Made by a program: the position numbers and the translations under genes. Below the pieces are notes generated by a model. The model had not been told where the DNA came from, did no database searches, and saw nothing but the letters and a program-made list of their open reading frames with translations. A stretch of DNA of 43,305 nt from Reclinomonas americana ATCC 50394 (lineage: Eukaryota): contig PS015600.1 of assembly GCA_048213135.1 (NCBI GenBank), positions 9,972 through 53,276 of the forward strand, written 5' to 3'. Below are positions 2,876 through 43,305 of the stretch, one piece after another; positions within the stretch are counted from its first letter, which is position 1, and every line of letters begins with the position of its first letter.

Positions 2876-5800
2876 ATGGGCTCGTCTTCGTCGAAAACAG
2901 CGGCCAGTGGTGATCCTGGTCCCGGTGAGTGGGTTGGAAAGAGAGAGAGAGAAAGCGAGTGACAGCAACACCAACATCGCCAACACGATGATGCACGTGC
3001 AGTGGAGGAGGAAGTCAGCGTGATGATGATGCCGGATGATGAGTGGCAGGCGCTCTGGCATGCCATTGCCGACGACGTAGGACGGCACATGTGGAGCATG
3101 GCCGCCGAGAAGCTCAACAGCTGCCCACTGTCCATGTTGGGCGTGCGAGAGAATCCCGCACGAATGCAAGAACTGAACTCATTGGCTGTGATGGTTCGTT
3201 GTTGTTGGTTCGTTGTTAGCAGTGTGCATTTCTCCGCTCTGCCTCAACACTGTCAATCATCGTGCGCAGCTGTTGGAGGAGGGCGCACCAATCGATGTTT
3301 TCGTTCCACTCGTGCTGGCATGCAAGTGCGTGATCATCATCTACGTATGTCTATTTATGCCTTTGTCTCTGATGATGATGAGTGGACACCGCCAAAGGTA
3401 TGGTCCCATGGTCAACGCAGCTGGTGAGCCACTGGAGGACATCGCGTCGAGACTCGAGCTGCCGGAACATCACGATCTGATCGTGGCGATTCGCAAGTCG
3501 ATGCAACCATCCGCTGCGCGTCGCCAGCGCCCGGTGTTGCTGCAGCGACCGATGCTGGTGACAGCCAAGAAGAACCTGCGCGACTTGACGCTGTGCGACA
3601 GTTTGTCGGCCGGCGTGTCGCAGGATAAGGCCGCGAGGAGGGTTGTGCGCGAGGAGCTGGATGTGCCGGGAGCGCGATGCTTTCTCTTGCACAATGTGCT
3701 CTCTCAGCAGGAGTGCGCGTATCTGATCGCGCAGGCCTCGGACACTGGCTTCATTGATCTGGCGTCCACGTTCCCGGTGGAGTACCGCTGCAACGATCGC
3801 GTTCTCTTCGTGTCGGACGAGATGGCCACTTCCTTGTGTTGCGTTGTTGTCCCTCGTGGGGCCAGACGATAGCGCGTTGTTCACTCGCGAAAAAACACAG
3901 GGCACCGCGTTGCGCCTCACCTGGTGCCCCAGGATGTGCTTCGTGTGCGGCCAATGGATTTCGGCAACCGCGGTGTGTGGCGGCCAACGCGTCTCAACGA
4001 GTGCTTCAAGGTCAATCGATATGCCAGCGGCGGTCACTTTGCGCCGCACATTGACGGGCCGTGGGTGCCGCGGTACGACGAATCGTCGGTCTACACTGTG
4101 ATTGTGTACCTCAACGACAACTTTGATGGTGTGTGTGCGCCACTACATGTGTGTTCTCGTGTCGGCGCTGACTGGCATCTCGAATGCAGGCGGGCAAACG
4201 CACTTTATGAAGGAGTCGTATCCGTTCTCTGGCCGCCTCGACCTGGAGCAGCCGGCAGTGGACGCCGCCAATACTGCCTGCTCTGTGCGGCCGCGCACCG
4301 GTACCGCTCTGGTGTTCAATCACGACGTGATGCACGCCGGGGACAAGGTGGAACATGGTGTCAAGGTCTGTGTGTGGAGATCGCCTCTTCAACAGAGTCC
4401 TCGATTCAACTCTCACGCGGTGTGGCAACAGTACATTATGCGCACAGAGATCATGTTCCAGCGAGTGGACACTCCCGCGCAGCCGGACCCCGATGCGTTC
4501 TTGTCAGATCCCAAGGTTGGTCCTTGACCGACAGCGCTCCACCACCACCTCATGCTTAATGTCGCACAGTACCTCCAACTGCTAACGCTGTACCAACGAG
4601 CACATCAACTGGAGGAGGAGGGCGATGCAGCGGGCTTTGTTGACACGTATCTGCAAGCGATTGCCATGCAGCGAGACGCGCAACGCTCCATACCGCCACC
4701 GGTGGAGCGTGGACATCTTCCGCTACCGCCAGACGTATTTGGGACGGTGCTCGAGTTCCTCAGTCCCCCGGAAGTGATGCGCACGCTCACCGTGAGCCGG
4801 GTATGTGCGGGATATGTAGAAGGCGTCACCAACGCCTGTGAGCTCACGCATGTTTCATCGCTTTTAGGCGTGGTACGAAATGGTATACGACGGCCGTGTG
4901 TGGATGGTGAGTGATGGATGTTGCCTGCTTCCTCGTGCATGCTGGCAAACGACTGAACATTGCGCAGAGCCGATGTCGTCGCGAGTGGCCGTTGCTGTAC
5001 GCTGCCGAGACGTTGCTTCACAAGGTCAGTGCTTTGCGGCCGCACCGCGCGCACCGACAGCTGTTGACCGTCGCGCGCCTCGTTGAATGCAGTGCCATCC
5101 GTCGATCGTGGACTGGTTCGGTCTCTATCGCAATCAGGTAAACACGTAACGCGAGGCAGCCGTCACCCATGTGTGTTCTCATGCGGGATTGTGTTTGCCA
5201 ATGCAGTACATTGTGGGCGAAGGTCGTTTGCCGTACATGGTGATTGACATTGGAGGTTACACTACCAAGGGCGCGACCATCTTTGTCAACAAGAAGACGG
5301 TGCGCACGCAAAAGATCCGCTCCGTGGTGGCGCAGGTACACTCGTGACGCGATCTCTTCCATGAAGCTCCCGATTGCGACCTCAGCGTGCATCGCAGGTA
5401 CCATACATATTCGATCTGCACATGCGGCGCGGACCGTTCGACCGCACGCTGGTTGGCAACGCTGCTCTTGAGAAACACAGCGCGTACGCGACACCAGTGT
5501 CGACGTTTGGTGCGTATTCTTCCGTCGACCACGTAGCCGCAGCGATTGCAATTGCTCATCATTCGACGCAGCCCAAATCAACATGACCCTGTTGCCGGAG
5601 CTGCTTGCACGCTTCCTCTTTGCCGCACTTGTCGAAAACCCTCGTGACCAGCGCTCGCTGAAGCAACCGCTTCTCTTTGCTGTACCTGCTACCGGCTGGT
5701 CGGCACGCTACCAGTTGACCTTGGCATCGAACATTCGCACCATCGCCAACCGCGCCGTGGTTCTCGTCCCTGCCCCGGTCTTGTCAGCAATCCACATGGG

Positions 5801-6368
5801 TCTCACGGAAGCTGTGGTGTGCTCTGTCGGGCATCACATGGCGACCGTTGCGTGTGTCGTCGATGGCGTTCTGACCGAGAAGCCCGTTGCGACAGTGGTG
5901 CGCGAGGCAGAGTATGCGTCTGCGGAGGAGATGGCGCAGGCTACTGCTCGTATGCTTGCCTCCGCCGCACCCTCTGTGAACCACGTCGTGCTGACTGGCG
6001 GTCGCACGACGCCAGCCGAGTACCGTGCAGAATTTGAGCGTGAGCTCATGACGTATGAAGGGTTGAGCGCGAGCTTGAAGGTCGTGTATCCTGAGGACCC
6101 GACACTGGATGTGGTGCTGGGCGGTGTGGCGGCCTCTGAAAGTGTGCGCGCCTCGGGAGCGGTCAGCAACCACTACCGCCCCACCACCGAAAAAAGTGAA
6201 GAGTACGTCCGATCGACCAACTTCTACCGCGTGGTGTACCAGTTGCGTCGTCATGTCGAGCTTCTGTTGTGTCGGGGTGCGTGGCTGATTGCAGAGCAAC
6301 GCAACACACAGAAACTATTGGCTCCGTACACACCGCCCGCATGCGGCTCCGGAGGGCGAGCGATCTGA
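2876..6368 (+). CDS. Multidomain protein (~877 aa, 14 exons): N-myristoylation motif, ankyrin-like region, 2OG-Fe(II) dioxygenase (prolyl 4-hydroxylase-like), F-box, divergent actin-like domain
   Basis: Phase-consistent GT-AG exons: 2876-2924, 3003-3193, 3270-3325, 3398-3837, 3901-4128, 4190-4365, 4432-4515, 4570-4800, 4868-4906, 4968-5024, 5093-5137, 5207-5335, 5398-5509, 5572-6368 (sum 2634 nt, divisible by 3). Motifs: MGSSSS; LLEEGAPID..PLVLACKYG; LHNVLSQQEC, RYASGGHFAPHID, IVYLNDNFDGGQT, FNHDVMHAG, KYIMRTE; LPPDVFGTVLEFLSPPEVMRTLTVSRAWYEMVYDGRVW; VIDIGGYTTKG, VVLTGG, DVVLGG. An extra intron near 6200-6293 is possible. Confidence 0.85.
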
Positions 6369-6413
6369 CCTGAGACTGGCGAGTGTGGCTGACAGCATGC
6401 TGTAAAATCAAAT

Positions 6414-7428: not shown

Positions 7429-7475
<47 letters not shown>

Positions 7476-9513
7476 AGGAGGAAAAGGCGTGGAAGCAACA
7501 GAGGATGGAGTCTGAGGAGCGACTGCAGGGAAAGAGAGGGGTTGGGGGGAAGGAGAGGAAGCAAGAGGAGAAGGAGAGACGGAGGATTATGAGCAGGGGA
7601 GAGAGGAGTTGAGAGAAGAGAGAGGAGAAGGAGATGGAGGAAAGACAGAGAAAGGGAGGAGTTGAGAGGAAAGAACGGGACCAACAGAGGGGGAGGAGAG
7701 GAGCTGAAAGGGAAAGAGAGAGGCAAATGGGGAACGAAGAAGGCAGGAAACGGAGAAACTTTACAGAGAAACAGAAGGAGCAACAGGAGAAGGAGAAGAA
7801 GAAAGAGGAGGAGACTGGAAGGAATTGAGATGGAATGAGAGGAGTAGAGCGGGGAAGGAGAATAAGAGAGAAGCGATGGGGAAAGGGAGGAGTTGAGATG
7901 GAATGAGGACAAGATAGGGGGAGGAGGAGAATGGGAGCGGTGGAGAGAGAAGAGAGGAGCAAGAGCGAACGAAATGGAGGAGCGAAGGCAGAGAGAGGGA
8001 GGTGTTAACAGGAGAAAAGGGCAAGCGAGGATGCAAGAGGCGATGGAGAGGGAGCAAGAGTTGACGGAGACAGAGGATCAAGGCGGGAGGAGAGCGTGGT
8101 TGAGAGGGAAAGAGAGGGAGCAACAGGGGAAGGAGACTGAGGAGTGATGACAGAAGAGTGAGAGAACAAAGGGGAAAGAGAAGGAAGAGAGAGAAAAGCT
8201 GCGAGAGAAAGAGGGAATCAAGAGCACATTGTCTCCGGAGCCGCACCTTGCAGACACAGTCGCTTGAGACGACTCATGCGCGCAATGGCCTGAATGCAGT
8301 CGGCTGAGGTGCTGTTGGCACCAAAGTCGGCGTCCTCCAACTGATCAGCAAAGGCGACTGCGAGCTGTTCAAGACCAGCGGCCTCCACCTGACAGCCTGC
8401 GAGTGAAAGAGTCAGAGGAGAGTTGAGAAAGAGGGCTACAGAGTGACAAAGCAACGAAACGGTAGATATGCAAGCGACGGAGCCGGGGCATGCGCTGCGC
8501 AATCACACGCGCTCCATCAAGACCAAGGGAATTCGCTGCACGTAGACGTGAGGGAGGAAGACACTCGTGCGCGCGCGCGGGTCTTTGCACGCAACAGCTG
8601 ACAATGAGTTGCTCCAGCGGCAACGCCGAAAGCGCTTCCAGGGCCTCGGCATCCAGCTCGCAACCTGCACGCGCGACAAGTGAGCAATCACCTGGCACAC
8701 ACAGGTGAACGCGGCCACTTGCAAAAACGCAACGCTTGGCCTCCAGACCGAGCAGCTGTGGGGCGTGCTCCGCAATGGCCACTGCGCCCACCAGCCGAAC
8801 CTTGTTGTCTACTCATGCACACAGTCAGCCTTCAACTACGTAGAGAACACGCGCAGACAGGCACGCAGCTGCTGATATCGAGGTACTGCAAGTGGCGCAA
8901 GAGACCGGCGTCGGCCGCCGATCGGAACGTCGACTTGAGCATGTCGGCCGCCAATCGCTTGTTGTACAAGTACGCCTGCGCCACTCGCCGTGAGATACAC
9001 AAAAAATAAAATCACGATATTGTTCACAGAGATCAGTGCGAAACAAAGGCCAGTGGCACGGTGCCCGACAGTGCCTGCACCGAGTCGGTGCCACGCAGGT
9101 CCTCGCCATCGTCGCCGACCAGCTTGACGCAGTCGCGGGGAACTAGGCCTTCCACGGCGCACATGCCAAAGGCGCGGACTTTGACCCATGAGTCGTCGAC
9201 CTTGTAACGGGGAAGGGAGGTAAAGGGAAAGGGAGGTAAGGGAAAGGGAGAATAAGGGAGGGAATGAGGGGGAGGGAGAGAACGCAGAGTGCACAGAGGA
9301 GGGTGACATGCAAGGTCGACGGAAGAATGCACTATCACGATCATGCACACTGTCACGACATGAATGCGTGTGTGTGAGAGAGAGGCGAGAGAGTGTTCTC
9401 ACAATCTGCGTCACGCGATACCAGTTTCCCGGAGTCAAGTCGCGCTGCCCAGCAGCAGAAGCACTGCACAACAACACACACACATCAACAACAACAACAG
9501 TCACAAACCTTAA

Positions 9514-9545
<32 letters not shown>

Positions 9546-9649: not shown

Positions 9650-9721
9650 GATATGCAAACCACCACCAAAACACCACCAAAGTGACACTAAAATTCATGT
9701 TGATTTGCCTTTCTCTCTTTT

Positions 9722-12198: not shown

Positions 12199-14030
12199 TC
12201 ACTCGCCATCCATCGATGCGTCGAGCCCCCCATCTCCATTGCCGTCGCCGTCGTCTTCCCTGCTTCGCTTCTGTCCGCGTTTCGCTTTCCGCGAACCACC
12301 CACTCGCGCACCCGGTCCCACCCAGCTGCTGCTAATCACAATCGCGGGCGGTGCCGGCATTGCTGGCTCCTCACCGTCGCCCATCTCATCGCTCCCATCC
12401 ACCGCCATTCCGCCAGCCGCCGGCGGCACCGCTGCCATTGGTGCAGCGGCAGCTGCCGTCACCCGCCTCTTGGCACGGTACTCCTTCACATTCTGGCGAC
12501 GACGACGATTCTGACTGGCCTCCACCTCGGGCGGTGGGGCGCGGTCCAGCTCCACCACGTTGCGCAAGTGCTCGGCGATGGTGCCGAATGGATCGGCGCG
12601 ATAGGTCGGATGCTGCGCGACATGGCGAGTATCAGTCGTTGCTCTCGACTTTAACCTCACTATTTGCGTGTGTGTGTGTGTGTGTGTGTGTGCCTTTCAA
12701 CCCTTCTCCGACTTATATGTCTCACTCCCTCTCTCTCTTTGCGCATGCGTGCATTGGTGTGTGCGTGTGCCTCCCCACTCTCCCTTACGTCTCTCCCTCA
12801 TTCTCTGCATGCGTGCGCGTGTATGTACGTGGACTTACACGTCTCTCTCCTCTCTCAATTCTCCTGTCTGCGTGTGTGTGTGCGTCTCTCTCTCGCCCCT
12901 CTCTCTCTCTGTGCGTGTACCTTCGCCTTCTCGCCTTGCGTCATTCTCGCTTTCTCTCTCTCTCTGTGCGCGTGCGTGCGTGTGTGCCTCCCTCCTCCCA
13001 ACTTCCGAGATACGTCGCTCTCTCTATCTCTCGTTGCTTCCGTTTCTGTCCCTTTCTCTCGCTCTCTCATTGCGTGTGTGTGCATTCTTCTCCCTTCTCT
13101 CGCCTTCCGTCTCTCTCTCTCTCTCTCTCTCTCTCTGCACGTAGGTGCGAGAGTGAGGGTGCCCTCCCCCCATTCTTCCGACTTATGTCTCCCTCACTCT
13201 CTCGTTGCTTCTGTTTCTGTGTCTCTCTCTCGCTCTCCCATTGCGTATGTGTGTGCATTCTTCTCCCTTCTCCCGCCTTCCGTCTCTCCTCTCTCTCTCT
13301 GCGCGTGAATGTGTGTGTGCGTGTGCCCTCCTCCCCCCGTCTTCCGACTCACGTCTCTCTCTCTCTCATTGCTTCTGCTCGTCCCGCTCTCCCCTTTTCT
13401 CTGTCTCTCTGCTTCGTTTCCTCCCTTCCCCCTCCCTCTCATCCCACTCACTCGCACCTCCAACACACTCTTGAACTGCGCCGACTCCTTAACCAGCAAT
13501 CGCTGTCGAGCGAGTCCATGCTTCGGCTGCCCGCCCAGTCGCCTCTGCTGCCCGACACGAGCAGCATCGGCCTGCTTCTGCTGCGCGCGCTCCTTCTCCA
13601 GCTGCATCAGCGATGCCCACAACGAGTTCGGCATGCCTCCAATGCCAATACCACCTCCAATGACACCACTAGCACTGCTGCTGGTGGTCGTGCTGCCTGC
13701 TCCCAGTGTTCCCAGTGCTCCCACTCGCGCCGCTCGGGCAGCCGCCTAAGCATGTGAGGCAACGCACATCAGCCAAGCTGCAGGGCGGGCAAAGAGAAGA
13801 GGGTTGCACGTAACCTTCTCACTCTCCTGCTCATGCGTCAGCTTGGTCACCAGTTCGGCGCCTGTGTGTGTGTCGAGTGTCGGTGATGTGAATGTGCACA
13901 TGGCGCGCACTCTCACTCTCTGCCACTCACGATTCTCTGCAGGCATGCACCAGACAGAAGATGCACACATACAGACACACAGAGGCCAGCACGCACTTCT
14001 CATGCATACACACTTGCACACACATACTTG

Positions 14031-14332: not shown

Positions 14333-14633
14333 GCACCTCACACGCAACGTTTCGCGCCCTTCTTCTTCCGCTGCCTCCTCTTGTCGGCCGAGCCACCACC
14401 ATCGCTCGTCATTGACGTGTCGCCCTTGGACGGAGTCACCGCCGTCTTCACTGCCTTTTTCGCCTTGTTCTTCTTCTTTGTGCTCTCGCCATCCTCGGCC
14501 TGCGCTCGTTCCGGAGCAACAGAGGTGACCACTGCGGTGCCACTCTGTGTGTGTGGAGGAGAAGATGTCAGAGGGAGAGAGGGAGTGGGAGTGGGAGAGG
14601 GTGTGTACGGACCACCAGCTTCCTCTTCTTCAT
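12199..14633 (-). CDS. SLX9: SLX9/FAM207A-family ribosome biogenesis protein
   Basis: Phase-consistent exons 14633-14613, 14544-14349, 13861-13815, 13745-13458, 12612-12199. The spliced RQRLLVKESAQFKSVLE|HPTYRADPFGTIAEHLRNVV matches the SLX9 C-terminal motif (E..RF..VL.HP.F..NP...I..HL.N). The N-terminus is basic and K/R-rich. An in-frame upstream ATG at 14669 is possible. Confidence 0.8.
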
Positions 14634-16227: not shown

Positions 16228-16689
16228 TTTGGTACGGTGGATGTTGTTGTCCGTGTCTAATGGGCACTGTCAAGGCGGCGCTGGATGATAGGCCTTGCAC
16301 GGCGTACGATTGCGTGTTTTCAATGACATGTGGGTGTCAGCAGTACTTTAATCGGCAGCAACTGCGGTCCAAGTATGGGTTTCAGCAGCAGGTGAGGAAG
16401 CGGGGAAGGCAAGGGGAAAGGTGCATTCACTCTCAACTAATTGAGTTGTCAGTCATTCCCTTGATGCACTCTGGTCCACTTTCTCTCCTTCTCCCTCTCA
16501 ACTCCCGTCTATCGTATCGATCGTTCTTTGTTTTCGCCTTGATGAACTCTCTCGCTATTGTACATTCTTGCTGTCACTGTTGTTTATTCACCTCTCTCCC
16601 TCTCATTGTTGCTGTCAGCCTTACCTTTTGTTGATCCTCTCTGTTGCTTTCTCTGTTTCGGGGTGTCGTTCGCGTGTCACCGCGATCCA

Positions 16690-18472: not shown

Positions 18473-21400
18473 ATGGGCGAGTTGCTTGGCATGTCGTTGT
18501 TCACGTTGCCGCCACTGGATCCCAGCTTGGCGGAGCTGGTGGCGCGGCCGGATACACTGAGTAGCACAGTTGTGTGAGAGGGGAGAGAAGGAGGAGGAGA
18601 AGTGTGAGAGGCAAAGGGTGTGTGATGGAGGAGGCTTGTTCTGTGTGCATGCTGCATTAGAGAGAGAGAGAGAGAGAGAGAGAGAACAAGTGGAAGAGTG
18701 TGAGAGAGTGGCATGCAAAGCTCCTTGTGGGTGCAGACAAGCAGAGAGAGAGAGAGAGAGAGACTTGGGAAGCTTGTTTGTTGTGCATGTTGCATCTGCA
18801 CAGAGAGAGAGAGAGAGAGAACAAGTGGAAGAGTGTGAGAGAGTCACATGCAAAGCTCCTGATGGGTGCAGCAGAGAGAGAGAGAGAGAGNNNNNNNNNN
18901 NNNNNNNNNNNNNNNNNNNNNNNNNNNNNNNNNNNNNNNNNNNNNNNNNNNNNNNNNNNNNNNNNNNNNNNNNNNNNNNNNNNNNNNNNNNNNNNNNNNN
19001 NNNNNNNNNNNNNNNNNNNNNNNNNNNNNNNNNNNNNNNNNNNNNNNNNNNNNNNNNNNNNNNNNNNNNNNNNNNNNNNNNNNNNNNNNNNNNNNNNNNN
19101 NNNNNNNNNNNNNNNNNNNNNNNNNNNNNNNNNNNNNNNNNNNNNNNNNNNNNNNNNNNNNNNNNNNNNNNNNNNNNNNNNNNNNNNNNNNNNNNNNNNN
19201 NNNNNNNNNNNNNNNNNNNNNNNNNNNNNNNNNNNNNNNNNNNNNNNNNNNNNNNNNNNNNNNNNNNNNNNNNNNNNNNNNNNNNNNNNNNNNNNNNNNN
19301 NNNNNNNNNNNNNNNNNNNNNNNNNNNNNNNNNNNNNNNNNNNNNNNNNNNNNNNNNNNNNNNNNNNNNNNNNNNNNNNNNNNNNNNNNNNNNNNNNNNN
19401 NNNNNNNNNNNNNNNNNNNNNNNNNNNNNNNNNNNGATAGAGAGAGAGAGAGGCATGTAGAGCTCCTTCTGGGTGCAGACCCTTGCATTCTCACTCACTC
19501 GTGCATGCAGATCGCACAATGGCTGTCGATTGGTGGCGATTCAATGGCTCGAGCACGCAGTGCGCAGCTGGTGTCGCGACTGTTGCTTGATTGCGAGGGC
19601 ACGATGCGCAAGGTCGTGGAGCGGCGTGCGGAGCCTGAGTTGGCCGACAAGAGGGCGTTGGCGTTGTTGGAGGTCGCTGCGAAGGTGCGGGAATGAGGAA
19701 GAGTAGATAGAGTGCGTGCAGTCCTGCTATTCCTTCCTCCTTTCCCTCCACTCACCCTCACCCCACAGGCGGTGGTCGGCTGCTCCTTCTCGCTACTGGA
19801 CGTGGAGGCCTTTCCCCCTCGCTTCCACAAGGTGCTGCTGCTGGAGTGCGCGTGGCACGACGTCACCAACTTTCCGTTGCGTGCACGCAGAAGCCTACTC
19901 TTCGTTCCCCCCCCCCCTTGCTCAACGCGCGTACAGGCGCCGCTTGGTCATGCTGCATCAGTGGCTCGTGCGCAGTGTGGCCGGGGAGAGACCGGCACCG
20001 ATGATGTTGTTCCCGTCGCATCCGGGTGTGCATGCGACCTCGTCATCGTCGGCCGGCCACCGACCACCATCCTACGACGAGTATCGGCTGTCGATGGCAG
20101 GGCAGCGGAACGAGCGTGGCTACCTCACGTTTTTCCCGCTGGCACGCGAGCACAGCTCGTCGCTGCTGACCGGCGGCGTGGCGGCACTCACCGGCAGCAC
20201 GCTGGAGGCGGAACAGCTGATGGTGCGCCAGCAGAGCGAGCAGTCGGCGCACTTTCTCGCGCAAGTCGTGGAGAACCTGGACTCGTACGGGGTGACGCTG
20301 GTCGACGCCTGCGCACTGTGTGCCGATCTCGGCGAGTACCACTTTTTCTGCGAGGACATGGAGAAGACGGCGGCGTACTTTGGCATGGTGCACGCCATGC
20401 TGGCCAAGTGTGAGGAGCAGGCCGCCAAGCTGGGCGTCGAGCGGGGCCGCGTAGAGAGTGTGCTGCAGGTGTGCGAGGCCACCAAGCGTGTCGCGCTGGC
20501 GGTGCCGGAGGACCAGTCGTCGTTCAGTGTCGCCGATTGCTTGCGGGGGGTGGAGGTGAGTAGAGAGGAGAAGGGGGAAGAGGAGGAGGAAAAGGGAAAG
20601 AGTGGAGGAGGGCGCATTTTTATCGGCTGGTATCGGTGTTGAGTGCTGAGAGAGATATTCGCCTGCAGTGCCAGTGGATTAGTTGTCGAGTAGAAAAAAG
20701 TATTCAGTGTGCAGTGCAGACATTTGGGGAGATTTGGTCGTTGTGTGTGAAAGAGAGACATAGTGAAGGCGATTGTTCGTCGACGCAGAGTTGCCAGGAG
20801 TAGAAAACAGGGGCTGGCGGCTCATGCGTGTGTTGTCGAATGCCGCCGAGTAGAAGAAAGTATTCAGTGCGCAGTGCAAGACATTCGGGGAGATTTGGTT
20901 GTTTCACAGTCGTTGTGTGTGAAAGAGAGACAGAGTGAAGGCGAATGTTCGTCGACGCAGAGTTGCCAGGAGTAGAAAACAGGCGCTGACTGCTCATGCG
21001 TGTGTTGTCGAATGTCGCCGAGTTGAAGAAGGTACTCAGTGCGCAGTTCAAGGCAGCGTGTTCGCGCTGTGTGTGAAAGAGAGATAGAGTGAGGATGAAT
21101 AGGGTGCCAGGAGGCTGACTGCTCATGCGTGTGCGCTTCCGCAGAGCTTGTCGGATTTCGTGGTGCTCCTGCAGCGACTGGTGCGCTCCGGGTCACAGTG
21201 GGCGGCGGTGGCCTCGTTGCTGAGCGTGGATGCGGTGTTTGCCGTGTTGCCCTTTGCACTCTGCGTGTCGCTGGTCAACGATCCGTCGCTGATGCGCACG
21301 GATCCGGCCTATGAGCAACTGTTGGTGGCTGTTGCGCTGCGCGTGCATTTGTGTCCTGGTAAGGGAGAGAGAGAGAGAATGTGGGTGGAGGTGGGATGGA

Positions 21401-24400: not shown

Positions 24401-26066
24401 TTGCTCTCTCTTCCCCGGATTGTGCTCTCACCTCTTTCCTGCGCCGCACAGGCGAAGTGTGGAAACTGGAAGGCTGCATGCAGTTCGTGCGGCTGCTGGG
24501 CCCGCTGATGTCCAGTCTGGGTCTGTGGTGCGAGGTGATGCGCAGTGCACTTGGTGAGTCTCGCTGCACACTCGTCGCAGCGATGGTATCGTCTGACCTG
24601 CGGTAATCTATCGACAGGCGGAGATGGTGTGGTAACGCAACCGTGTGTTGCCGCGCTGCATGACTTTTTCCGTGCCATTCCACCGGCGTTCTTGTACTTT
24701 GCGGATGAGGTTCGTCGTGGACGGTCGGGGGCACCAGGAGCGGTGTGTTTGCTCATGACCTGCCTCTTTCCCGCGCAGAATGCGGACCTGTTTGAGCAGT
24801 CGTGGACTCGATTGCTGCGCTCGTGGACCGACAGACCGTCGATGGAGATGCTGGCCATGACGCTGGCGGCTCCGTACTGTGTCTCGCGGCGGAACGACGT
24901 GTCGATGCCGGGGACTCCTATTCAGTTGGAGAGCATGCCGCGTGCGTCGCGGTGCTTGCGACTCGACGCCGTCGATCTGAGTGCCATGTCTGTGCGGTAC
25001 GTCTGTCGTTCCGTTGTCGGTGGTGTGTCGATGAGCCTGTTTTTTTGCTGGACATCATCTTTTGCACGATACATCACTGCCGCCACCTCTGCTATCATCC
25101 CTATACCTGTCTCCATTCTCATTAGCTCACCTCCTTCCGCCCCATTCTTCTTTCCTCTCCGAACTTGTCCGTGCTCGCAGACCGACGGCGGAACAGGTCG
25201 ATGCCGCACTGCAAATGGGTGAGGTGGTGTCGGCTGGAGACAGGGATCCGGCACGCGATGCATTTGTGCTCTCCATGTTGCGCTTTGTGGCACTGCGATG
25301 GCTGGACTTGGAGCCAGTGTCGCCCGCCGTGTGTCGTCTGGTGGCCGACGTGTCGTTCGAGGCCAAGCAGCACCGTGAGTGCCTCAGGTGCGCTGTGTAT
25401 TGGACACAGGCGTTGCGTTTGTTTGTTTTTATTCGTTGCCTCACGGCGGACCGTGCGACAGGTACCACTTGCAATCGCTGGAGTTGTCCACTGTCAATTT
25501 CACGGATGCCGGCGCCCTCAAGCTCGAACCCCGCGCCGTGCGACAGTTGATCGACTCTCTCGTGCAACTGCGAGGTACGCGGATCTGTGTTGCTCTCTCC
25601 GTCTTCTTCTCGTATCTCACAAAATCGCAAAGGCATGATGCCTGCCATTGTGCTGTGCCAGTTTGATGAGCCGCCCGACTTTTCGGCGGCGTTCGCCATG
25701 TGTCACCGCGCCTTGGAGGTGAGGGGTGTTGCCTGTGGTGTCTGGAGAGGATGAACACTGACAATTGGTGGCGTGCAGCTGCTTGATGTGGAGTTTTTCG
25801 AGTATGTGTGGGAGATGCCGATCTTGGAGATTCTCATCCGTTGCGTTGCGAGTGGTGTGCGCACGCACAGTCTTCCTTTCGTCTCACCAGAGGGAAATGC
25901 AGATCTGTACACATTGCGAGGAGATACTACGCACGCGGCGCGTCTGACAGTGTTTGTGGAGTCGCCCGAGTTGAACATTCACAATGCGCCGTCGGTGAGG
26001 AGGCGCATGATTGAGAGGAGGAAGATGGCGTTTTTGCAGAGATTGGCGGGGTTGGTGGTGGAGTGA
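18473..26066 (+). CDS. INTS8: Integrator complex subunit 8 (multi-exon, spans one gap)
   Basis: The spliced C-terminus AIVLCQFDEPPDFSAAF...FFEYVWEMPILEILIHLYTLRGD...PELNIHNAPSVRRRMIERRKMAFLQRLA matches the INTS8 C-terminus as recalled (ILCQF..DY..AF..YIWD..ILE.L.YL...RGE..ELN..N......RRK..FLQ.MA). DLGEYHFF and ACALVNMGEF occur upstream. The start codon (18473 or 18491) is uncertain. Confidence 0.85.
20684..21143 (+). repeat. Intronic tandem repeat, three ~130-170-nt copies
   Basis: gNcgagtNgaa..aNgtaNtcagtgNgcag...gtgtgtgaaagagaga...gccaggag...gctcatgcgtgtg starts at ~20684, 20845 and 21017. Confidence 0.9.
21720..22445 (+). repeat. Degenerate pyrimidine-rich minisatellite (cctgcatYcacgc core) in an INTS8 intron
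   Basis: Many recurrences of tgcatYcacgc separated by CT-rich spacers. Confidence 0.8.
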
Positions 26067-26394
26067 AGGGTGAGAGGTGAAAGGTAAATAAGTATGGTGG
26101 CACTCGAGGGGTTCGCTTCACGCTGTTGGTGCAGGAACACCGCAATCGATGTCACCAAATGTAATCTTCCCACGGTATGTCCGACATCTTTGTTCTCACC
26201 TCCCCTGGCAACTCATATCCTCACCGCCCTTCTCCTTCGCTCCTGCTCCCCCCACTTCTTCCGTATTCTCCAGTGAGGACCTTGTGGCGTCGAGGGTCTA
26301 TTTTCTGACTTTTTGGCGGATTGGCGTGATTGCCCGAATCCGCCAGAAAAAATGTTGTCGCTCACCACACTCCTTTATCATCACTCAGCGAGCC

Positions 26395-27663
26395 ATGACC
26401 GACGTCGAGCAGCAACCACTGCCTCTCACCGCGCAGACTGCGCGGGACAGTGAGGCTGAGTTTCGTGGCATCCTCCACCGCCATCAGCGAGCCTTGGCCA
26501 TGTACAATGCGGAGCGGTACGCCCCGGCGGCGGAAGCCTTTGCCAGCTGCACTCGCGACTTTGCTGCTCTGCGTGGCGATGACTTTGAGTGGACTTTGTC
26601 GGCCATGCAGAGCCACGCGGCCGCCCTGGCGTGTCTGGGTGACAATCGAGACGCGCTGTCTATTTACAGGACAACCATTGAGCGCAGCCGGCGCTCTCGC
26701 GGCGTGGAGCATTCGGTCACGCTGCAGGCCACCGGCGACATGTGCAACGTCATGCTGCGGCTGCATCTGAACAACGAGGCCATTGCTCTGCTGCGCGATG
26801 CCAACCAGCGACTGGAGCGCACCACGTCGACCACTGACCGCCAGGTGCTCGGCAACATGGCCATGCTCGCCAAGGCGCTGGGCGATATTGGCATCCACGA
26901 CGAAGCGGCGCAGGTGCACCGCGACCTCCTCCAGCGCCACCGAGGAACTGGTCGGGGGCGCGACAGCTCTGAGGCACTGAAGGCGGCTCTTGACTTTGGC
27001 AAGTTCTTGTGCGGTGTCGGAGGATTGGAGCGCCTTACCGAGGCAGTCAGCATTTTGGAAGACACGCTCCAACGCCTTCGCCGCCTCCGCGGACACGGCC
27101 ACTCGGAGACACTCTTGGCCGCCTCGTGGCTGGGCGAGGCGCTGCGTGTACTAGGTCGACATGGCGAGGCGATCGAGCTTCTGCGGGACACGCACACCCG
27201 ACTGCAAGCTTCCAACAGCAGCTTCAACTTGTTCGGCGATGACGACGAGGAGGGGGAGGCCGTTGCGTCTGAAGCCTCGTTGCTCGTCCTCCACCGTTTG
27301 GCGCAAACACTGGCCGACAGCGGCGCCCACAACCAGCGAGAAGCTATTGCGATGTTCCGCACCGTCGTCGCTGACCGCACGCGAGTGCTGCCGGATGGGC
27401 GCGACAACCCTGCCACACTTGCCAGCGCACACTGCCTGGCTCGCGCACTTGTGCACAGTGCCGATGCCGACAACGTTCGCGAGGCAGTGGGCATCCTGGA
27501 GGACACGCTCGTCAGGCGCCGGCAGCTGCTTGGTTACTACAGCGCGGACACACTGGAGACTGAGGCAGCGCTGAGACAAGCGCGCACGACCCTGGCTGTC
27601 TCGGACGATGCACGCGAGAGACCGAGAATTGCTGACGAGGCGGTGGATGAGGTGGAAGGTTAG
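26395..27663 (+). CDS. Intronless tetratricopeptide repeat protein (42-aa TPR_10/12, kinesin-light-chain/NB-ARC-associated type), 422 aa
   Basis: Single ORF from ATG 26395 to TAG 27663. Repeats have HPxTL-like caps: GVEHSVTLQA, GHGHSETLLAASWLGEALRVLGRHGEAIELL, GRDNPATLASAHCLA, LGYYSADTLET. Confidence 0.88.
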   Translation: MTDVEQQPLPLTAQTARDSEAEFRGILHRHQRALAMYNAERYAPAAEAFASCTRDFAALRGDDFEWTLSAMQSHAAALACLGDNRDALSIYRTTIERSRRSRGVEHSVTLQATGDMCNVMLRLHLNNEAIALLRDANQRLERTTSTTDRQVLGNMAMLAKALGDIGIHDEAAQVHRDLLQRHRGTGRGRDSSEALKAALDFGKFLCGVGGLERLTEAVSILEDTLQRLRRLRGHGHSETLLAASWLGEALRVLGRHGEAIELLRDTHTRLQASNSSFNLFGDDDEEGEAVASEASLLVLHRLAQTLADSGAHNQREAIAMFRTVVADRTRVLPDGRDNPATLASAHCLARALVHSADADNVREAVGILEDTLVRRRQLLGYYSADTLETEAALRQARTTLAVSDDARERPRIADEAVDEVEG

Positions 27664-28260
27664 TGATGCCATTTCCCCAAAACAGGTGGCAGATTCGATA
27701 TCAGTTTTGCTCACTTATTTTTCTGTTTGTTGCAGGGGAGAGCCGACGACTAATGAGCGTCTTCGCGGCCATGGAGTTTGATGAGTAACAGCGAGAGTAC
27801 GTAATACACAGCAACAGAACTACTGGACTGTGAGTGCATGCGGCGGAATGGACCATTTTGCGCACTCGCGGCCGCACTGCATCCGGCCCGTTTTGCAGCG
27901 GCCTCCCTGTTGTCAACAAGACCCTATGAGCGCTCCAGCTGCGCAGCGAGTGCTGTCGATAGCACGGAGATGTGCTTGCCTCCGTGTGACGCCCAGTCGC
28001 AGAAAACTACAGGCTTGTTGAATCATTGCTGGTCGAAATCGAACTCGGGCAGCTGAACTGCGATCTGCACCGCATGAAGCGTGAATGGACCTCGATCAGG
28101 AGCCAGCTGTTTCCGCTGAAAGCCCCGCTGGCCGTTGTTTCTCTTGCAGATTTTCGAAACGCCAGCGCGTAACACGTCAACTTTCTCTCGCTTCCGCGCG
28201 ATGTCACAGTTTCCGACGCTCACTCGAGCTCACGATGATGATGCAGCTGTGTCGCTCTTG

Positions 28261-36300: not shown

Positions 36301-38322
36301 CGCGCACACTCCGGTCGTGTGATCGCCACGTCGTCGTTGTGGGTTCGTCTCTTTTTGATTGATTGCGCACCTGAGATGATGAGAGTCTCAAGTTTTCACG
36401 TTGCAGGATTTCCCCGGCGAGGTCATGCCGGGACTCTACGTCGGCTCCATGTTCTCGGCGGAGAACAAGGGTCTGTTGGATCAGTTGGGTGTGACGCACA
36501 TTTTGATTTGTGCGCGTCAACTCGAACCGCGCTTCCCGGACTCGGTCAAGTACTACAAGGCCAGCTTGGATGACACGCCGACGCAGAATCTGTTCGAGTG
36601 CTTGCCCGGCTGCCTGCGCTTCATTCACGAGGCAATGGACGAGAGGAGAGCCATGGAGACGGTCGGCGAGGCGACGTTGCATCGCAGTCGTTGAGTACTT
36701 ACTTTTGCACCCCACACCTTGGTGCGTCCTCCTCTCACGCTGTGTGCTGTTGGTACAGGATCGGCGGCGGTGCTCAAGCAGGAGCTGGACAGACTTCGTG
36801 AAGAGGGCGACCGATTCCACAACCAGGCCGACCTGGCCGAGCTCCTCCTCAATCCCGCTGAGCGTGAGTCGATCATCAACTCGGAGTCAATGGCCATCTC
36901 GGGCGTCTACGAGAGTGTGCTGGGCATCCGTCCGCAGGTGTATGTGGAAGCAGCTGCAGGTCCCTCGACTGCCGCCTCCTCGCTGTCGAGCAGCGACGAC
37001 GCAGACGTGGGAGCCGGTGCGCTTGCCTCGTCGCTGACGTCGTCATCGTCGGCTGCTTCCTCGGCCGCCAGTCCCGTGTCACCCGCCGTGCCGAGCGCAT
37101 TCAAGGCGCTGGCGCCGAGTCTTTCAGCGGATGTGGTCGCTGGTGCTGGCCAGCAGTCGCTGGCAGAAGACGTGGCACGCCTCTACAGCTCCATGTCGGC
37201 AACTATGCTGTCGGAGACGCCGTCGCCGGCGGGTGGTGGCGTTTCGTCTGCCGTTGCCAGCAGCACGCCGGACGATTCGGATGTGTGCCCGGCCACGGGC
37301 TTGCGGAGAGCGCGTTCCGGCTACTTCCAGTCGACACCGCAGTTGTATCATCCACAGCTGCACAGCCCAGGCCCGTCTCAGCAACAACCGCAGTACTCAC
37401 CACAGCCACAACAACCACAGCAGCACGGAGCGGAAATGCAATCGCTGTTGCGACACGGTAGTGCCGTGCAGCGGCACCATCTCGTGCTTTCGGTGGCCGG
37501 CTCTGGCAAGTCATCAATGTCGGGTGGCTCTGGCGGCCTGGTGTTCGACTTGGGCGCATTGGTGGCCGGCGATCGCAACACACTGGACGACGTCAGTTCG
37601 GCGAGCTCGCTGGTCGGCAGTTCGGATGAGGAGCGCGACATTAGTGATAATGATGATGACGATGATGACGCTGGCGGCGCACTGGACCAGGACGAAGTCG
37701 CGGCCACGACGGCCGCCACGGCGACATTGTCAGCGTCGCCCTCTGCAGCTGCAGGGGGAGCGGCGGCGATGCCGTCGGCGGTGTCACATGGTGCCGCCAT
37801 TGTCGCTGGCGGCATCAGTGGCGAGTCAGCAGCAGCGATCGAAGGTGTTGCCGCCGGCCCATCGCAGTCGCCGCTGTCGTCGCCGATTCGAAGACCATCG
37901 CTGGGTGGCGTGCTGTCGTCGAGTTCAGTGGCCGACACCAAGCGCCGCAAGCCTGTTATTCTTGTGCACTGGTGCGCGCTCCCGTAGTTCTCCTTTTTTG
38001 TGTGTGTTGTGCTCACTCTCCACCACCACAGTGCGCAAGGTGTCTCTCGCAGCGTGTCTGTCGTACTCGCCTATCTCATGCAGGCAGAGGGCATGTCTCT
38101 CAACGACGCATTCCAGGTGCGCTTTCTCATGTCATGCCAACCCACTCTGTTGACCACATGATGCTGACGCGCTTCTCTCTTTTGCAGTTGGTCAAGCGAG
38201 CCCGTTCATGCATTCTGCCGAACCACGGCTTCATCTCGCAGCTGCGGGAGCTGGAGCAGGCATTCGCGGCTGGCAAGTCACTGCACGGAATCAGCCGCGC
38301 ACCAACAGTTAATGTTGCATGA
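31279..38322 (+). CDS. Leucine-rich repeat + dual-specificity (MAP kinase-type) phosphatase; 5' end upstream/uncertain
   Basis: LRRs: LENLEALDLSHNHL, LRVLNLADNRL, LEVLNLANNQF, LRHLDVSANRL, LRSLDISSNKL, LRTLDLRRNLL. DSP N-half: EVMPGLYVGS...LGVTHIL...LDDTPTQNL. Catalytic loop ILVHC|AQGVSRS is restored by intron 37972-38031, followed by AYLM...AR..ILPNHGFISQL. Same architecture as the Dictyostelium Mpl phosphatases. Confidence 0.9.
35090..35850. repeat. Intronic fold-back: GA-rich arm followed by complementary CT-rich arm
   Basis: gatgtgtcaagcgaaggaaggga (35339-35361) is the exact reverse complement of 35695-35717. There is also a ~65-nt direct repeat at ~35191 and ~35454. Confidence 0.75.
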
Positions 38323-38614: not shown

Positions 38615-41600
38615 TTACAGCTTGTGCATGTCCTCTGCATTGTCCGTGTCCACATCGTCCATGTCCATCACCTCGTCGCCATCCTGTGCATCCGGATCCA
38701 CAGTACGCCGTGTGCTTGTCACTCCCGTGACAGTGCCAGCAGCTGGTGGTGCGTGCTGTAGAAGACACAAAGCAATGAATGAGCGCACAGCGGCGTGGAG
38801 CAGTCACTGTCGTCCACTAGAAACAAACCTCGTCATCGGAGGAGTCATCATCCGACGAATCCTCGTCCATCCGTGTCACTCCCGAGCCCGATCCCGATCC
38901 TTCGGCAACTGCGGCCGGGATACCGCCAGGACCACGGCGACGATAGAAGAGCACGTACGCCGCACGACCGTCAATGTTGCTCGGCGATGTTTGCGACACA
39001 TGCCTGTGTGTGCGTGAGAATGTGCGTGGCGATCGTGTTCACAAAGAAAGAGTGCGTACGTAACGAGTCGTCAAACTTGTACCAAAGTCCGTTGCTGTTC
39101 TTGGCCACGGCGGTGTAGTGGCCACCACCGAGACCACCAAAGTGGTACGACACCGCGTACAGATCGTAGATTGGTGGTGGCTTGGCCGGGTCCACGTGCA
39201 TCACGTGTCTCGTCAGATCGAGTCCCTCGACGGGGAACGACACGTTCGTGTCCAACTTGTCCCTAAAGTAGCGCGAGTACGAGAAGCGCTTCAAGTGGAT
39301 GACCAAAATCTCCGGCGTGCTCCACAGGTCCATCTTTTTCCGTGCCTCCACATGTTGCTGGCACTTGGAGCAGTACCTGGGGTGGGGGAGAAGGGGGGAT
39401 GAGGGAAAGGGAGAAGGGGAAGGGAGAGGGGGAGGGAAGAGGGGGAGGGATGAGGGGAAGGGAAACTGGGAAGCGAATAGGGGAGCGAGATGAGGGGAAG
39501 GGAAAGGGGGAAGGGAAAGGGGAAGGAAGGAGTAGACGGAGGGAAAAGAGGGAAGAGCAAAGAAGGTAAATAGAGATGAGGGAAGAGGGAAGAGGGAAGG
39601 CACATAGAGACGAGGGACGTGAGAGGAACGGGGAGAGGAAGATGCGCACATTTTCCTCTCTCTCTTCTCAGTGGGGAGAGAGCAAGAGAGAGTCGCACAT
39701 ACAAGAGAGACAAAAAGAGAGTACAATGCGTGACAAAGTGGAGGCGAACGGCGCACAACCACCCACCCACAGAGAGAGAGAGCCAGAGAAAAAATAATAC
39801 TCTCTCAGAGTGCAACCATAACACACCATGCGTCCTCAGGTGACAGGGTCTCCTCCTGCGAGAAAAGCTGCAAGCAATCGTCCAGCGACACATCGCTCTT
39901 GGTGGTGCTGCGGTACGAACCGACACTGGCATCACGGCGGCATTCCTGGATGCACACACAGACACAGCGATCAGCACCACCACCACCACAAACACACAGC
40001 CGCTCTGCTGCACGCAAGGCGCACCACTTCCGCTTCGTGATTCCACGCATCGCCGACCTCGTCCAGGGTCCACGCAACGGCCAGGTAGTCCTTCGAGCGG
40101 TACTGCGCACTCGGCGGCAGCACCGCGTCGTCAGAGTACACCACCTCCTGGGCACCCGGCACGTCCACACTGTGCGGATTAAAAAAAAACGGGTAAGCGA
40201 ACTCCATTTTCCACCCTCATATTCTTCTCATTCACACTAGGCACACGCACCCGCTGAAATCGACAAACTTGAGCACAAACAACGGCTTGCTCGGCACACG
40301 CGGACCCGCTGCTGGCGCCGCCGCACTGCCGTCCACTTCGGCCGCCACTGGGCCATCGTCACCTGACGGGGCCGCAGCATCAACGTCGGCGGGTACTGGA
40401 CCGTCGGCAGCGCTCGTGCCACTCTGCGACATCGGCTCGTCGGTGGTCGCCTGGTACAGCAGTCAGTCAACAACAACAACGGTATCAAAACGGTGGGCAT
40501 CAAAACTCAACATCGTCATCGTCATCATCATCCTGCGCGTCGGCATCAGCAGCAACGGCGCCGGCGGCGGAGGCGGCACGTGGCAGAGGGAACAATTTGG
40601 TCAGGTCGGAGCAGTCAATCACGTCCTTCTTGATGAGGTGGCCTACTTGCGCCCACACAGCATCGTACAGCTGGCGGCCAGTGGTCTCGCCCTTGACAAA
40701 CGGCACCGCCGTCGGCACGCCAAACAGTGCCGGTCGCCACTCCTTGCGTTGATATCTGGGCAGCGATGTTGTTGAGCGTATTCGAATACGCAGGTCGACG
40801 ACAAAGAAGAAAACGACGCAACGACGAATGCGTGTAAATCGATCGATTGCTGCTGTAGTACGGATCGCGCTCCATCTTGCGATGCACGACCACCAGGTAC
40901 GGACGCGGTGGCGCCTTGGACGCGCTGATGCGGTAGTCCTCTTCTTGGTGAGCCACGGCTGGCAAACCCGGCACGTGAATCCTGTGGACATTGAAAATGT
41001 AAGTAACACAACAAGCCAGTGCTATGGAGAGAGCGAGAGGCAGAACGCACGCGTAGATCTTGTCGCGGTCGGTCAGATTGTCCACCGACTGGCCATCCGT
41101 GTAGATGGTGTACAGCCGGTAGTTGTACAGCTCGGCAATCAAAACCTCGTCCGGCTGACAGCAGAATGCATGTGAGTGCATGGGCGCGAGCAGCACATCG
41201 ACACAGCACACTGAGACAGACCTGGCACTTGAGCACTTCGGCCACGCGCGAGCGCAACAGACGCACACTGGCAAACTTGTTGACGACAAACTCGTGCTCA
41301 AACGGCGTCTCCCGTCGAGCACACGGGAAGCAGGTGACCACCACTGAGCGATTCTTCTCCACCGGCAGCGGCAATTGCAGGAACATGTACGGATCGAAGG
41401 TGACGGAGACACGACCAGTGGCCACTGCAGCGACGAGAAGGAGAAGGAGAGATGATTGTCAGCGCGATATGACAGGCGAGGAGACGAAGTTGTGGATGCG
41501 TACCGCACGATGGGGTCGTGCACGTCAGCGTGCTCTTCATCTGGCCCTGGAACAAATCCACAATGTATGACCGGTTGCGCATCGTGTGCACCTGCCACGC

Positions 41601-43305
41601 CTCGTCGGCCACCTGCAGCGACAAATATGAGCACCGTGGAAACATCAGATCGACACCCCGAAAACACACAAACCACTTGGTCTGGACGGTCGCCGCCCTC
41701 CACGGGCGAAGTGACGGGCTTCTCGCGCACGCGGTTCAAGTCCTCGTGCAGGCCATCCAACAAAAACGCCAGCAACTCTTGCGAGTCGTGTTGCGCATAT
41801 CTATACACACACAAGAGCAGAGTGTGAGTGAGCAAAACGTACGTGCGTTCATGTGCGTGTGAGACACACACGCACCCCGAAAACTGCGGCGCAAACTGCC
41901 CGATGCAGTGTTTGAAGTCGCGAGGAATCACGTACGAGTAGGCACCCTTCCACACCTCGGCCGCCAGCTTGGCGTACGCGATCGCCAACTTGCCGCCCAT
42001 GCCCAGTGGGTTCTGCACGTTGATGTCCTGCACGTGCCTGTAATCGGGGAAGAAGGGGGACAGCGAGAGGTGAGTTGAGAGAAATGGGAAAGTAAGGGGG
42101 AAGGAATGGGAAGGAAAAGGGGGAAGGAAAGGGGGAAGGAAAGGGAAGGGGGAAGGAGAAGAGGGAAGGAGAAGGGGAGAAGGGAAACAGGGAAGGAAAC
42201 GGGGAAGGAAACGGGGAAGGAAAGGGGGAAGGAGAAGGGGGAAAGCGAAGGCAGAAAGGGGAACGAGAGGTTGGGGAAGGCAGAAAGGGGAACGAGAGGT
42301 GAGGTAAAAGAAAGAGGAAACGAATGCGAGGAGAGATGAGTAGAGAAGTGGTAGTGCAGGTCAGATACGAAAAGACGGAAATGGGGTCTGAGACGTGAGA
42401 TGGGAGACAAGGGAGAAGGAGACGAGGCGATTGAGAGAGATGAGAAGCGAGGAGGGCGCAGAGCAGCGACAACTCGAAAGAAAGCAACGAGCCAGAGTCC
42501 ACATGCTGCCAAGGCGTGCCACGCAACTCTCCACGCAGAATGACATCGGTCAGCGGCTGCGTGTGCAGCAGGCACTGCAGACCCGAGTTCATGAAGCAGG
42601 TGTTGCCGAGATTCTGCAGGCCGCACACGCCGGGCACGGCATTTGGTGACGGCACACCACCGCTCGAGTTGTACTCGTAGTTGCGGCTGTATGACGAAGC
42701 TGTGGTGCACAAAGAAGAAGCACATATGAGGAGGGGAAAAAAACAACGCACGGTGAAGCGGGCAGAGTACGACGGCAACGCAACAGCCAGTGCCGGACCA
42801 GTAGCTGGTGGTGCCAGAGGTGGAGCTACCGACGCGGGTGATGCCACCCGAGTAGCCGCTTCCGTACATGCCACCAGCGCTGCTGCCGACCGTGCGTCCA
42901 CCCGAAATCGAGTCCACCGCCGCCACAGCTGAGACCAGCAAACGAAGTCAGCACTCGACAACCCACACAAGAACCCGCCGTCGGTGAGCGCAACTCTTCT
43001 TCTTCTCCTTGACAGTCCACTCGCCGTCGGCGGACTTGGTGTCGAGCACGAGCTTCATGCCACTCTCAATCATGCAGTCGTCCAGCGTGCGGTCCTCGTC
43101 GGAGAGCACCTTGAATGGGTTGTCGGCATGCAGGGACCACACACGCGCCTCCACCTCCTCCTTCACGTCGTACTTTGTGCGCAAGCGCGCCAGCACTGTG
43201 CGGATCTTGTCGTTCTTGGAGAAGCACACCTCCGTGGTGGCCATTGTGTCGGTGCACAGCGCGCACTTCAGGTAGAGCGGGTACACTTCGACTTGCGGCG
43301 TGCCA
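38615..43305 (-). CDS. USP15: Ubiquitin carboxyl-terminal hydrolase, USP4/11/15 family (5' end beyond window)
   Basis: UBL domain VEVYPLYLK...[11 protein letters not shown]; Cys box [53 protein letters not shown]; His box [20 protein letters not shown]...[17 protein letters not shown]. The stop TAA ends at 38615. The symbol is family-level (co-ortholog of USP4/11/15). Confidence 0.93.

Follow-up and report, generated by a model that had tools for sequence, protein, structure and literature searches.

Results

Gene content of the window

The DNA analyzed here is a 43,305-nucleotide (nt) stretch of Reclinomonas americana ATCC 50394 (contig PS015600.1, positions 9,972 to 53,276), referred to below as the window, and the element under study is a second class of 5' splice site (donor) in which an extra T stands at intron position +3, between the initial GT and the donor core. 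The window is eukaryotic, with a G+C content of ~55-60% outside six runs of N, and it is gene-dense, its genes being split by many short introns. Nine gene regions were delimited, with strands assigned from Pfam hits, homology, and reading frames. Two of these were fully curated, while the remaining gene models are the output of a purpose-written gene finder. Gene A (2876-6402, forward strand, end approximate) combines, by Pfam, 2-oxoglutarate oxygenase-like, F-box-like, and actin-like parts and contains 14 introns, two of them with an extra-T donor. Gene J (38890-43305, reverse strand) encodes a ubiquitin hydrolase of the USP4/11/15 kind; its 5' end lies beyond the window, and six of its 14 introns begin with an extra-T donor.

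Once the extra-T donors are used, gene A reads as a stop-free frame of 866 residues from ATG to TAA, completed by the intron at 6242, and nine of its junctions align without a gap against homologues. Gene J, which was aligned to 20 homologues, likewise yields a stop-free frame, of 874 residues, with its extra-T donors. Together, the two genes place 8 of 28 donors in the extra-T class. Relatives of gene A were collected by an exhaustive HMMER search of representatives, which returned 18, with identities of at most ~50% over an exon. A search with the gene J region returned 4040 ubiquitin-hydrolase relatives, none of them close, the best full-length identity being ~37%. No match was found for a 53-residue exon used as a protein query, and a metagenome scan recovered 40 loci, with no more than 63% identity in the best segment and no orthologous introns to compare.

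Junctions fixed by protein homology

Protein homology fixes four predicted GTT donors, at 3838 (+), 6242 (+), 42527 (-), and 39064 (-): splicing at each yields a product that aligns gap-free and restores a conserved residue or conserved spacing. The first, T/GTTGCGT at 3838-3844 (+) (a slash marks the exon-intron boundary throughout), opens a 63-nt phase 1 intron, 3838-3900, that contains an in-frame stop. In 14 of the 18 gene A relatives, tblastn alignments showed a gap of exactly 21 residues across this site, and the spliced product, SLW-HRVAPHL, was gap-free against all six homologues compared (6/6). The codon assembled at the junction (T+GG) encodes a conserved aromatic residue. The second, A/GTTGCGT at 6242-6248 (+), had not been listed previously and begins a 70-nt phase 2 intron (6242-6311). 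Its removal restores the pattern NFY..V..QNYW, which matches the C terminus of the relative P0142, and raises the local alignment score from 153 to 164.

The other two lie in gene J. A/GTTGCGT at 42521-42527 (-) begins a 490-nt phase 2 intron (42527-42038), and the spliced product has no gap against the 8 ubiquitin hydrolases displayed from an alignment of 20 homologues. C/GTTACGT at 39058-39064 (-) begins a 61-nt phase 2 intron (39064-39004), across which the tblastn matches of homologues abut, as for residues 975 and 976 of P0075. Here again, the product (WYKFDDS-HVSQTS) has no indel at the junction relative to the 8 displayed homologues of 20 aligned.

Composition and abundance of the extra-T class

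A first-pass annotation of this DNA had listed 14 donors of the extra-T form and proposed that they constitute a second, abundant class in which +3 is T, the conserved G stands at +6 instead of +5, and the last exon position (-1) mostly lacks G. This description is supported, and the class is discrete. All 14 motifs were recovered, position and strand included. Our own curation reproduced the absence of a -1 G from 13 of the 14 and its presence at 11 of the 12 ordinary donors in the gene at 2876-6368. Four donors were added, namely, GTTGCGT at 6242 (+), GTTGAGT at 40511 (-), and, tentatively, GTTTCGT at 8460 (-) and GTTTCGC at 9044 (-). A cautious tally comes to 13 firm sites, 16 probable ones, and 18 when the two GTTTCG[TC] donors in a repeat gene are counted. 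The extra-T share of introns in the window is ~20-29%, and ordinary donors outnumber the class ~3 to 1. The earlier count of six genes becomes seven here, with 19436-20750 and 22600-27750 counted separately. Judged by homology, frame, and motif, the predicted extra-T donors are genuine, and the case for them is stronger than the first-pass annotation had made it.

Each class donor consists of GTT followed by the local core [G/A/T][C/A]G[T/C], mostly GCGT, and this core occupies +4 to +7 in 16 of 16 sites. Over all 18 sites, the core is GCGT or GCGC at 12, ACGT at 2, GAGT at 2, and TCG[TC] at 2; these are the strong cores of the ordinary donors, and cores having T at the fourth slot are missing from the class, though common among ordinary donors. 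The hexamer GTTGCG accounts for 12 of 16 members, whereas ordinary donors are degenerate. When sense sites of the form GT-N-core were collected, those listed as donors numbered 18 of 39 for N = T, but 0 of 35 for G, 0 of 23 for C, and 0 of 5 for A. The gene finder, run without donor information (see below), chose one GTGAAGC site, in the gene for a pseudouridine synthase (TruB).

A G at -1 is found in 1 of 16 class members, compared with 18 of 20 curated ordinary donors, all from genes A and J (Fisher, 4.9e-7), and in 1 of 15 compared with 22 of 31 in the set selected blind to donor sequence. In this blind set, the expected excess of G at +6 and loss of the -1 G among GTT donors were both borne out: 15 had G at +6, one of them with a -1 G, beside 7 with G at +5, of which 5 carry a -1 G. 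These G+5 donors mostly retain the exon G (5/7), so its loss is not due simply to T at +3. They read GTTCGT, GTTTGT, or GTTGGT, and one of them, at 41673 (-), is gap-free against homologues. The classes also differ in codon phase, with 2 of 16 class introns in phase 0 versus 11 of 20 ordinary introns (p = 0.014).

GT opens and AG closes each of the 18 listed introns. In both classes, the acceptor is mostly CAG and is preceded at 10-40 nt by CTCAC, CTGAC, or CTCAT, and lengths are alike at ~60-85 nt. By these features, the extra-T introns are predicted GT-AG introns of the major spliceosome (U2-type). U12-type introns carry a [AG]TATCCTT donor and a TCCTTAAC-like branch site; this candidate was rejected, both motifs being absent from all 18. 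A GC-AG reading (GTT/GC) was rejected as well, as it adds a residue at the gap-free junctions of 3838, 42527, and 6242, and GTTACGT and GTTGAGT contain no GC. Window-wide, the branch motif is unusually uniform, with CTCAC accounting for 28 of 65 best motifs, CTGAC for 11, and CTCAT for 10.

GTTGCGT occurs 25 times in the window, against 7.29 +/- 2.80 expected from 100 dinucleotide shuffles, none of which reached 25. Within the nine gene regions, 18 copies are in the sense orientation and 3 in the antisense; the other 4 copies lie outside the regions. The 18:3 bias is consistent with a signal that is read in RNA. Sense GTTGCGT or GTTGAGT sites that belong to no gene model are located at 24031 (+), 9596 (-), 11084 (+), 20638 (+), and 34923 and 35059 (+). 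These sit in poorly modelled stretches (a 695-nt intron and gene ends) and could be further class donors.

Donor-blind gene finding

The gene finder uses Viterbi decoding. Its score combines codon-periodic composition with matrices for the branch site and the acceptor and with a fixed penalty per intron, and any GT may serve as a donor. In a first pass, with models free of donor information, TGCG was already the top word at +3 to +6 (6 of 66 introns). In a refined blind run, GTT[AGT][ACT]G[CT] made up 14 of 68 chosen donors against 50 of 1793 sense GT sites (binomial P = 5e-9), and GTTGCG made up 8 of 68 against 28 of 1793 (P = 1e-5). Run on an antisense decoy, the finder gave 57 introns, one with a GTTGCG donor. 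The first-pass figure is the cleanest, because the composition models of the refined run were trained on a run that used learned donor words. Of the 68 blind-run donors, 19 lack G at both +5 and +6, and their placement is probably wrong. Three of the four homology-fixed donors (3838, 6242, and 42527) were missed by the blind model, and 3838 was missed even after donor k-mers had been learned.

The cost of each site was defined as the score lost when its donor was forbidden and the model solved again; costs ranged from 0.5 to 10.8 nats. Alternative GTs in the same frame were sought within +/-60 nt while the acceptor was held fixed. None was found for 8595 (-) or 42994 (-). A poor GTCGTTG alternative lies 3 nt upstream of both 36690 (+) and 40822 (-), and for most remaining sites the same-frame alternatives all lack G at +5.

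Further members of the class

In the leucine-rich-repeat gene on the reverse strand, the donor-blind run chose C/GTTGCGT at 8727-8733 (-) (69-nt intron 8733-8665, phase 1, cost 4.15 nats) and T/GTTGCGT at 8589-8595 (-) (60-nt intron 8595-8536, phase 1, 3.62 nats). Removal of both introns keeps the ~24-residue repeat period. The 8733 intron carries a CTCAC branch motif 17 nt ahead of its CAG; it is in frame and stop-free and is hence not obligatory by frame. The GTTGCG at the start of this intron is repeated directly after its acceptor (..AAGC/GTTGCG.. and ..CAG/GTTGCG.., 8733/8665), and the junction could move to the other copy only by ignoring the GT-AG rule. Chance may account for this repeat, or the repeat may be left over from the origin of the intron. 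The two tentative members were also blind choices: C/GTTTCGT at 8454-8460 (-) (64-nt intron 8460-8397) at a cost of only 0.67 nats, and T/GTTTCGC at 9038-9044 (-) (69-nt intron 9044-8976) at 3.79 nats.

Two more blind choices lie on the same strand. C/GTTGCGT at 14342-14348 (-) begins a 487-nt phase 1 intron (14348-13862; 4.92 nats); an in-frame stop follows the donor, and G at +5 is absent from the same-frame alternatives. G/GTTACGT at 13808-13814 (-) begins a 69-nt phase 0 intron, 13814-13746, with an in-frame stop (3.81 nats) and is the sole class member with a -1 G.

On the forward strand, C/GTTGCGT at 19876-19882 (+) (61-nt intron 19876-19936, phase 2; blind choice, 2.69 nats) is ambiguous, with an ordinary-looking same-frame A/GTGCGCG 30 nt upstream. 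C/GTTGCGT at 25840-25846 (+) (63-nt intron 25840-25902, phase 1; blind choice, 1.42 nats) is ambiguous in the same way: its intron is in frame and stop-free, and a same-frame G/GTGTGCG lies 15 nt downstream. The weakest case is A/GTTGCGT at 23757-23763 (+), which was selected only with learned donor k-mers and not in the donor-blind run. Its 695-nt phase 1 intron (23757-24451) may conceal an exon, and GTTGAGTG at 24031 falls inside it. C/GTTGAGT at 36690-36696 (+) begins a 69-nt phase 1 intron (36690-36758) and was a blind choice at 0.49 nats; an in-frame stop codon comes immediately after it, and GTCGTTG is the only same-frame alternative.

Four more members belong to gene J. The blind run chose A/GTTGCGC at 42988-42994 (-), which opens a 66-nt phase 1 intron (42994-42929) with an in-frame stop (7.11 nats), and T/GTTGCGT at 42778-42784 (-), which opens an 85-nt phase 1 intron (42784-42700; 2.31 nats). 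The latter is ambiguous; a same-frame C/GTGCGTT lies 33 nt downstream and would give a 52-nt intron, and the site falls in a variable linker in which homology gives no decision. C/GTTGCGT at 40816-40822 (-) (67-nt intron 40822-40756, phase 2; blind choice, 1.26 nats) also lies in a variable protein region. The highest cost of any site, 10.75 nats, belongs to T/GTTGAGT at 40505-40511 (-), which was absent from the earlier list and opens a 61-nt phase 0 intron (40511-40451). An in-frame stop follows the donor, and the sole same-frame alternative, 45 nt upstream, lacks G at +5.

Four introns of the window, 3326-3397 (+), 8733-8665 (-), 8595-8536 (-), and 25840-25902 (+), are divisible by three and free of in-frame stops. 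Retention of any of them would add 20-24 residues and leave the protein unbroken.

Discussion

A proposed shifted register for U1

The reading that we favor, at a probability of about one half, is a shifted register, in which U1 small nuclear RNA (snRNA) would dock on the T-core in one and the same register for both donor classes. Aligned on the core, ordinary donors would read G/G-U-core and the second class /G-U-U-core, so that the two would differ in one base and in where cleavage falls. The slot that the exon's last G fills at ordinary donors would be taken, in the second class, by the first G of the intron itself, and the base after this intron G would form a single U-C mismatch. Cleavage would then go to the sole available GU, one base upstream in the register of U1, and the U1 of this organism would be expected to pair with C at +4. 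The loss of the -1 G would follow from this arrangement, since the slot is taken by G+1; a bulge does not predict that loss.

Donors were folded as duplexes under a nearest-neighbor model, with either the standard U1 5' end or an assumed U1 with G at position 5, a form reported for Mastigamoeba balamuthi (10.1101/2022.06.08.495308). With the latter, ordinary donors averaged -8.9 kcal/mol and class donors -5.4 kcal/mol, and 11 of 16 class sites paired wholly in the +1-shifted register, with G+1 taking the usual partner of -1 in these 11. Both donor classes would be accounted for by a U1 whose position 5 is G. The data are consistent with the mechanism that the first-pass annotation had offered, namely, a shifted or bulged U1 register, possibly involving a variant U1 or U6. 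The wider proposition, a genome-wide two-register donor code in which ~1/5 of introns would own their "exon-end G" and be read by a U1 changed at position 5 to pair with C at +4, is more tentative, and we would put it somewhat short of even odds. Under such a code, the second register would be favored where the exon has no G to offer; class introns are rarely in phase 0.

Several points weigh against the shifted register. With the standard U1, ordinary donors paired well (-6.7 kcal/mol), 19 of 20 of them canonically, whereas the class averaged -1.7 kcal/mol in scattered registers, 7 of 16 being shifted. Given pairing this weak, the model needs a change in U1, which is assumed here, or else recognition by U6 or proteins. 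The base at -1 of class exons is mostly C (7/16), while the slot that it should mimic, -2 of ordinary exons, holds mostly A or T (14/20). U6 would still need to tolerate an extra base between the GU and the core. At 3 of 16 sites, 19876 (+), 42784 (-), and 25840 (+), an ordinary-looking same-frame GT with G at +5 is available. The evidence comes from one 43-kb window with ~39 kb of called bases, every junction was derived from genomic sequence alone, and the curated ordinary donors (n = 20) were drawn only from genes A and J.

Alternative explanations

A bulged U is the alternative that survives best. U1, and then U6, would pair with G+1 and U+2, one U at +2/+3 would loop out, and the core would pair one base further on. 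The bulge +2/+3 register was validated in human cells, according to the available portion of Tan et al. 2016 (PMC4856993), and it would keep the cleavage site normal relative to U1. Some bulge would be required for U6 whichever model holds. Folding with the G-5 U1 gave the bulged form at 13814 (-), the one site with a -1 G, and at 8733 (-), but favored the mismatch form over the bulge at 11 of 16 sites. A bulge also leaves the depletion of the -1 G (1/16 vs 18/20) unexplained, in that a G there would add a pair, and, slippage aside, it gives no reason for the insertion of T only. We regard it as unlikely.

A dedicated or altered snRNA seems less probable still. This could be a second U1 (or U6), or a single U1 that fully matches GUUGCGU and to which ordinary donors are imperfect. 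The near invariance of the class (12/16 GTTGCG) beside degenerate ordinary donors would be in keeping with such an snRNA, and lineage-specific coevolution of U1 and donors is reported for Entamoeba and Mastigamoeba in the accessible part of a preprint (10.1101/2022.06.08.495308). Against it stand the ~3 to 1 majority of ordinary donors and their better pairing with the G-5 U1 (-8.9 vs -5.4 kcal/mol). The window, moreover, holds no U1 or U6 gene at Rfam gathering thresholds and none at E<=1. The only Rfam match at the latter limit was a weak one to MIR408, a plant microRNA family, at 16369-16509 (-); it scores 26 bits where the gathering score is 64 (E = 0.023) and is most likely due to chance.

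It is very improbable that the class reflects mis-placed boundaries or an artefact, be it use of a nearby GT, a GC donor 3 nt downstream, retained in-frame segments, or a T introduced by sequencing error. The three sites with ordinary-looking same-frame alternatives, the four in-frame, stop-free introns (8733, 8595, and 25840, with 3326 in the ordinary set), and the genomic origin of all junctions leave some room for it. At the four junctions that are exact by homology, this explanation is already largely refuted, and the GC donor fails on the added residues and on GTTACGT and GTTGAGT, as given above. Random indels would neither target intron starts nor produce an 18:3 strand bias nor remove the -1 G.

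Introners, that is, a recently inserted family of mobile introns ending in GTTGCGT, would fit the recurring heptamer and the GTTGCG copy just after the 8733 acceptor but are hardly credible and are refuted for the window, since branch sites, acceptors, and lengths are normal, two of the introns sit inside conserved domains, and the 18 introns share nothing besides the heptamer but chance matches of 9-26 nt, mostly in simple repeats of long introns.

Relation to known donor registers

Shifted-register human 5' splice sites were reportedly described by Roca and Krainer in 2009, and human donors in the bulge +2/+3 register are said to have been described by Roca et al. in 2012. Both registers are treated in the available portion of Tan et al. 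2016 (PMC4856993), where Table 3 gives 68 predicted and 54 curated bulge +2/+3 sites among 201,541 human donors, and where the validated non-canonical registers, all taken together, account for 1.5% of donors. As described there, the human shifted register resembles the extra-T class in that the consensus lies one position deeper, G+1 can stand in for -1, and cleavage occurs at the GU. It differs in extent and core, comprising a handful of sites with an AAGU core, whereas the class takes in ~20-29% of introns with a GCGU core and always has U at +3, which leaves one mismatch. The human bulge +2/+3 sites in the same portion share with the class the form GUU plus core, the surplus U standing beside the GU; the class lacks the -1 G, unlike what a bulge model would lead one to expect.

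Departures of the donor consensus in other lineages provide a second comparison. In the accessible part of the preprint (bioRxiv 10.1101/2022.06.08.495308), Entamoeba has a GUUUGU donor with a U1 reading ACAAAC, and in Mastigamoeba balamuthi U1 reads ACGUAC and the donor is GUGCGC, with C preferred at +4. The ordinary donors of the window (GTGCGT, GTGCGC, and GTACGC) have C at +4, like those of Mastigamoeba, Thecamonas, and Mamiellales in that source. For Entamoeba and Mastigamoeba, the same part describes one consensus and one register, with no second, frame-shifted class. Gene structure shows no obvious fit: an excerpt on Mastigamoeba (PMC8136499) gives 3.4 introns per gene and a mean intron of 137 nt, and the window has 14 introns per gene.

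For exon 21 of STAT3, which has tandem donors, a flexible, non-canonical U6 register has been proposed, according to the available text (PMC11162779). As in the shifted-register model for the extra-T class, U1 docking and the cleavage site would be separable. STAT3, as presented in that text, is a single regulated human exon in which two GUs at a spacing of 3 nt compete, whereas the class has one GU and is constitutive across genes. A full-text literature search, whose coverage leaves many subscription papers outside, found no description of an abundant extra-T donor class. The papers on shifted or bulged registers that it returned concern human, yeast, tunicate, and Entamoeba and describe no such class, and the GTTGCGT heptamer, in DNA or RNA form, appeared only in primers and unrelated uses.

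Judged from the window, the extra-T class would take a non-canonical register that is already known and make of it a major, constitutive donor class. Human donors pair with U1 in a shifted or bulged manner at a small percentage of sites, a curiosity that has been studied with minigenes. If the genome-wide two-register code holds, U1 docking and cleavage choice would be routinely uncoupled by one nucleotide throughout an organism. An organism with a fifth or more of its introns dependent on such pairing would provide a natural system for asking how the cleavage site is chosen when the U1 register and the GU disagree, how U6 handles an extra base, and whether snRNAs coevolve with the donor code. 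In practical terms, many genes of this genome will be modelled wrongly by gene finders that rely on one donor matrix.

Other observations

The 866-residue protein of gene A fuses 2-oxoglutarate/Fe(II) oxygenase-like, F-box-like, and actin-like ATPase parts, and the same order of parts is found in its relatives P0126 (685 aa) and P0142 (837 aa). In gene I, a dual-specificity-phosphatase-like exon at 36383-36690 (+), with no Pfam match at the threshold used, stops before HCxxGxxR, which we take to be the catalytic motif that normally comes next. Gene I may be a pseudophosphatase, or its model may be incomplete. The long introns of gene J, 42527-42038 (-) and 39826-39377 (-), consist largely of C/T-rich, CCCTT-like simple repeats, and the long introns 14348-13862 and 23757-24451 contain GA, GT, and CA microsatellites.

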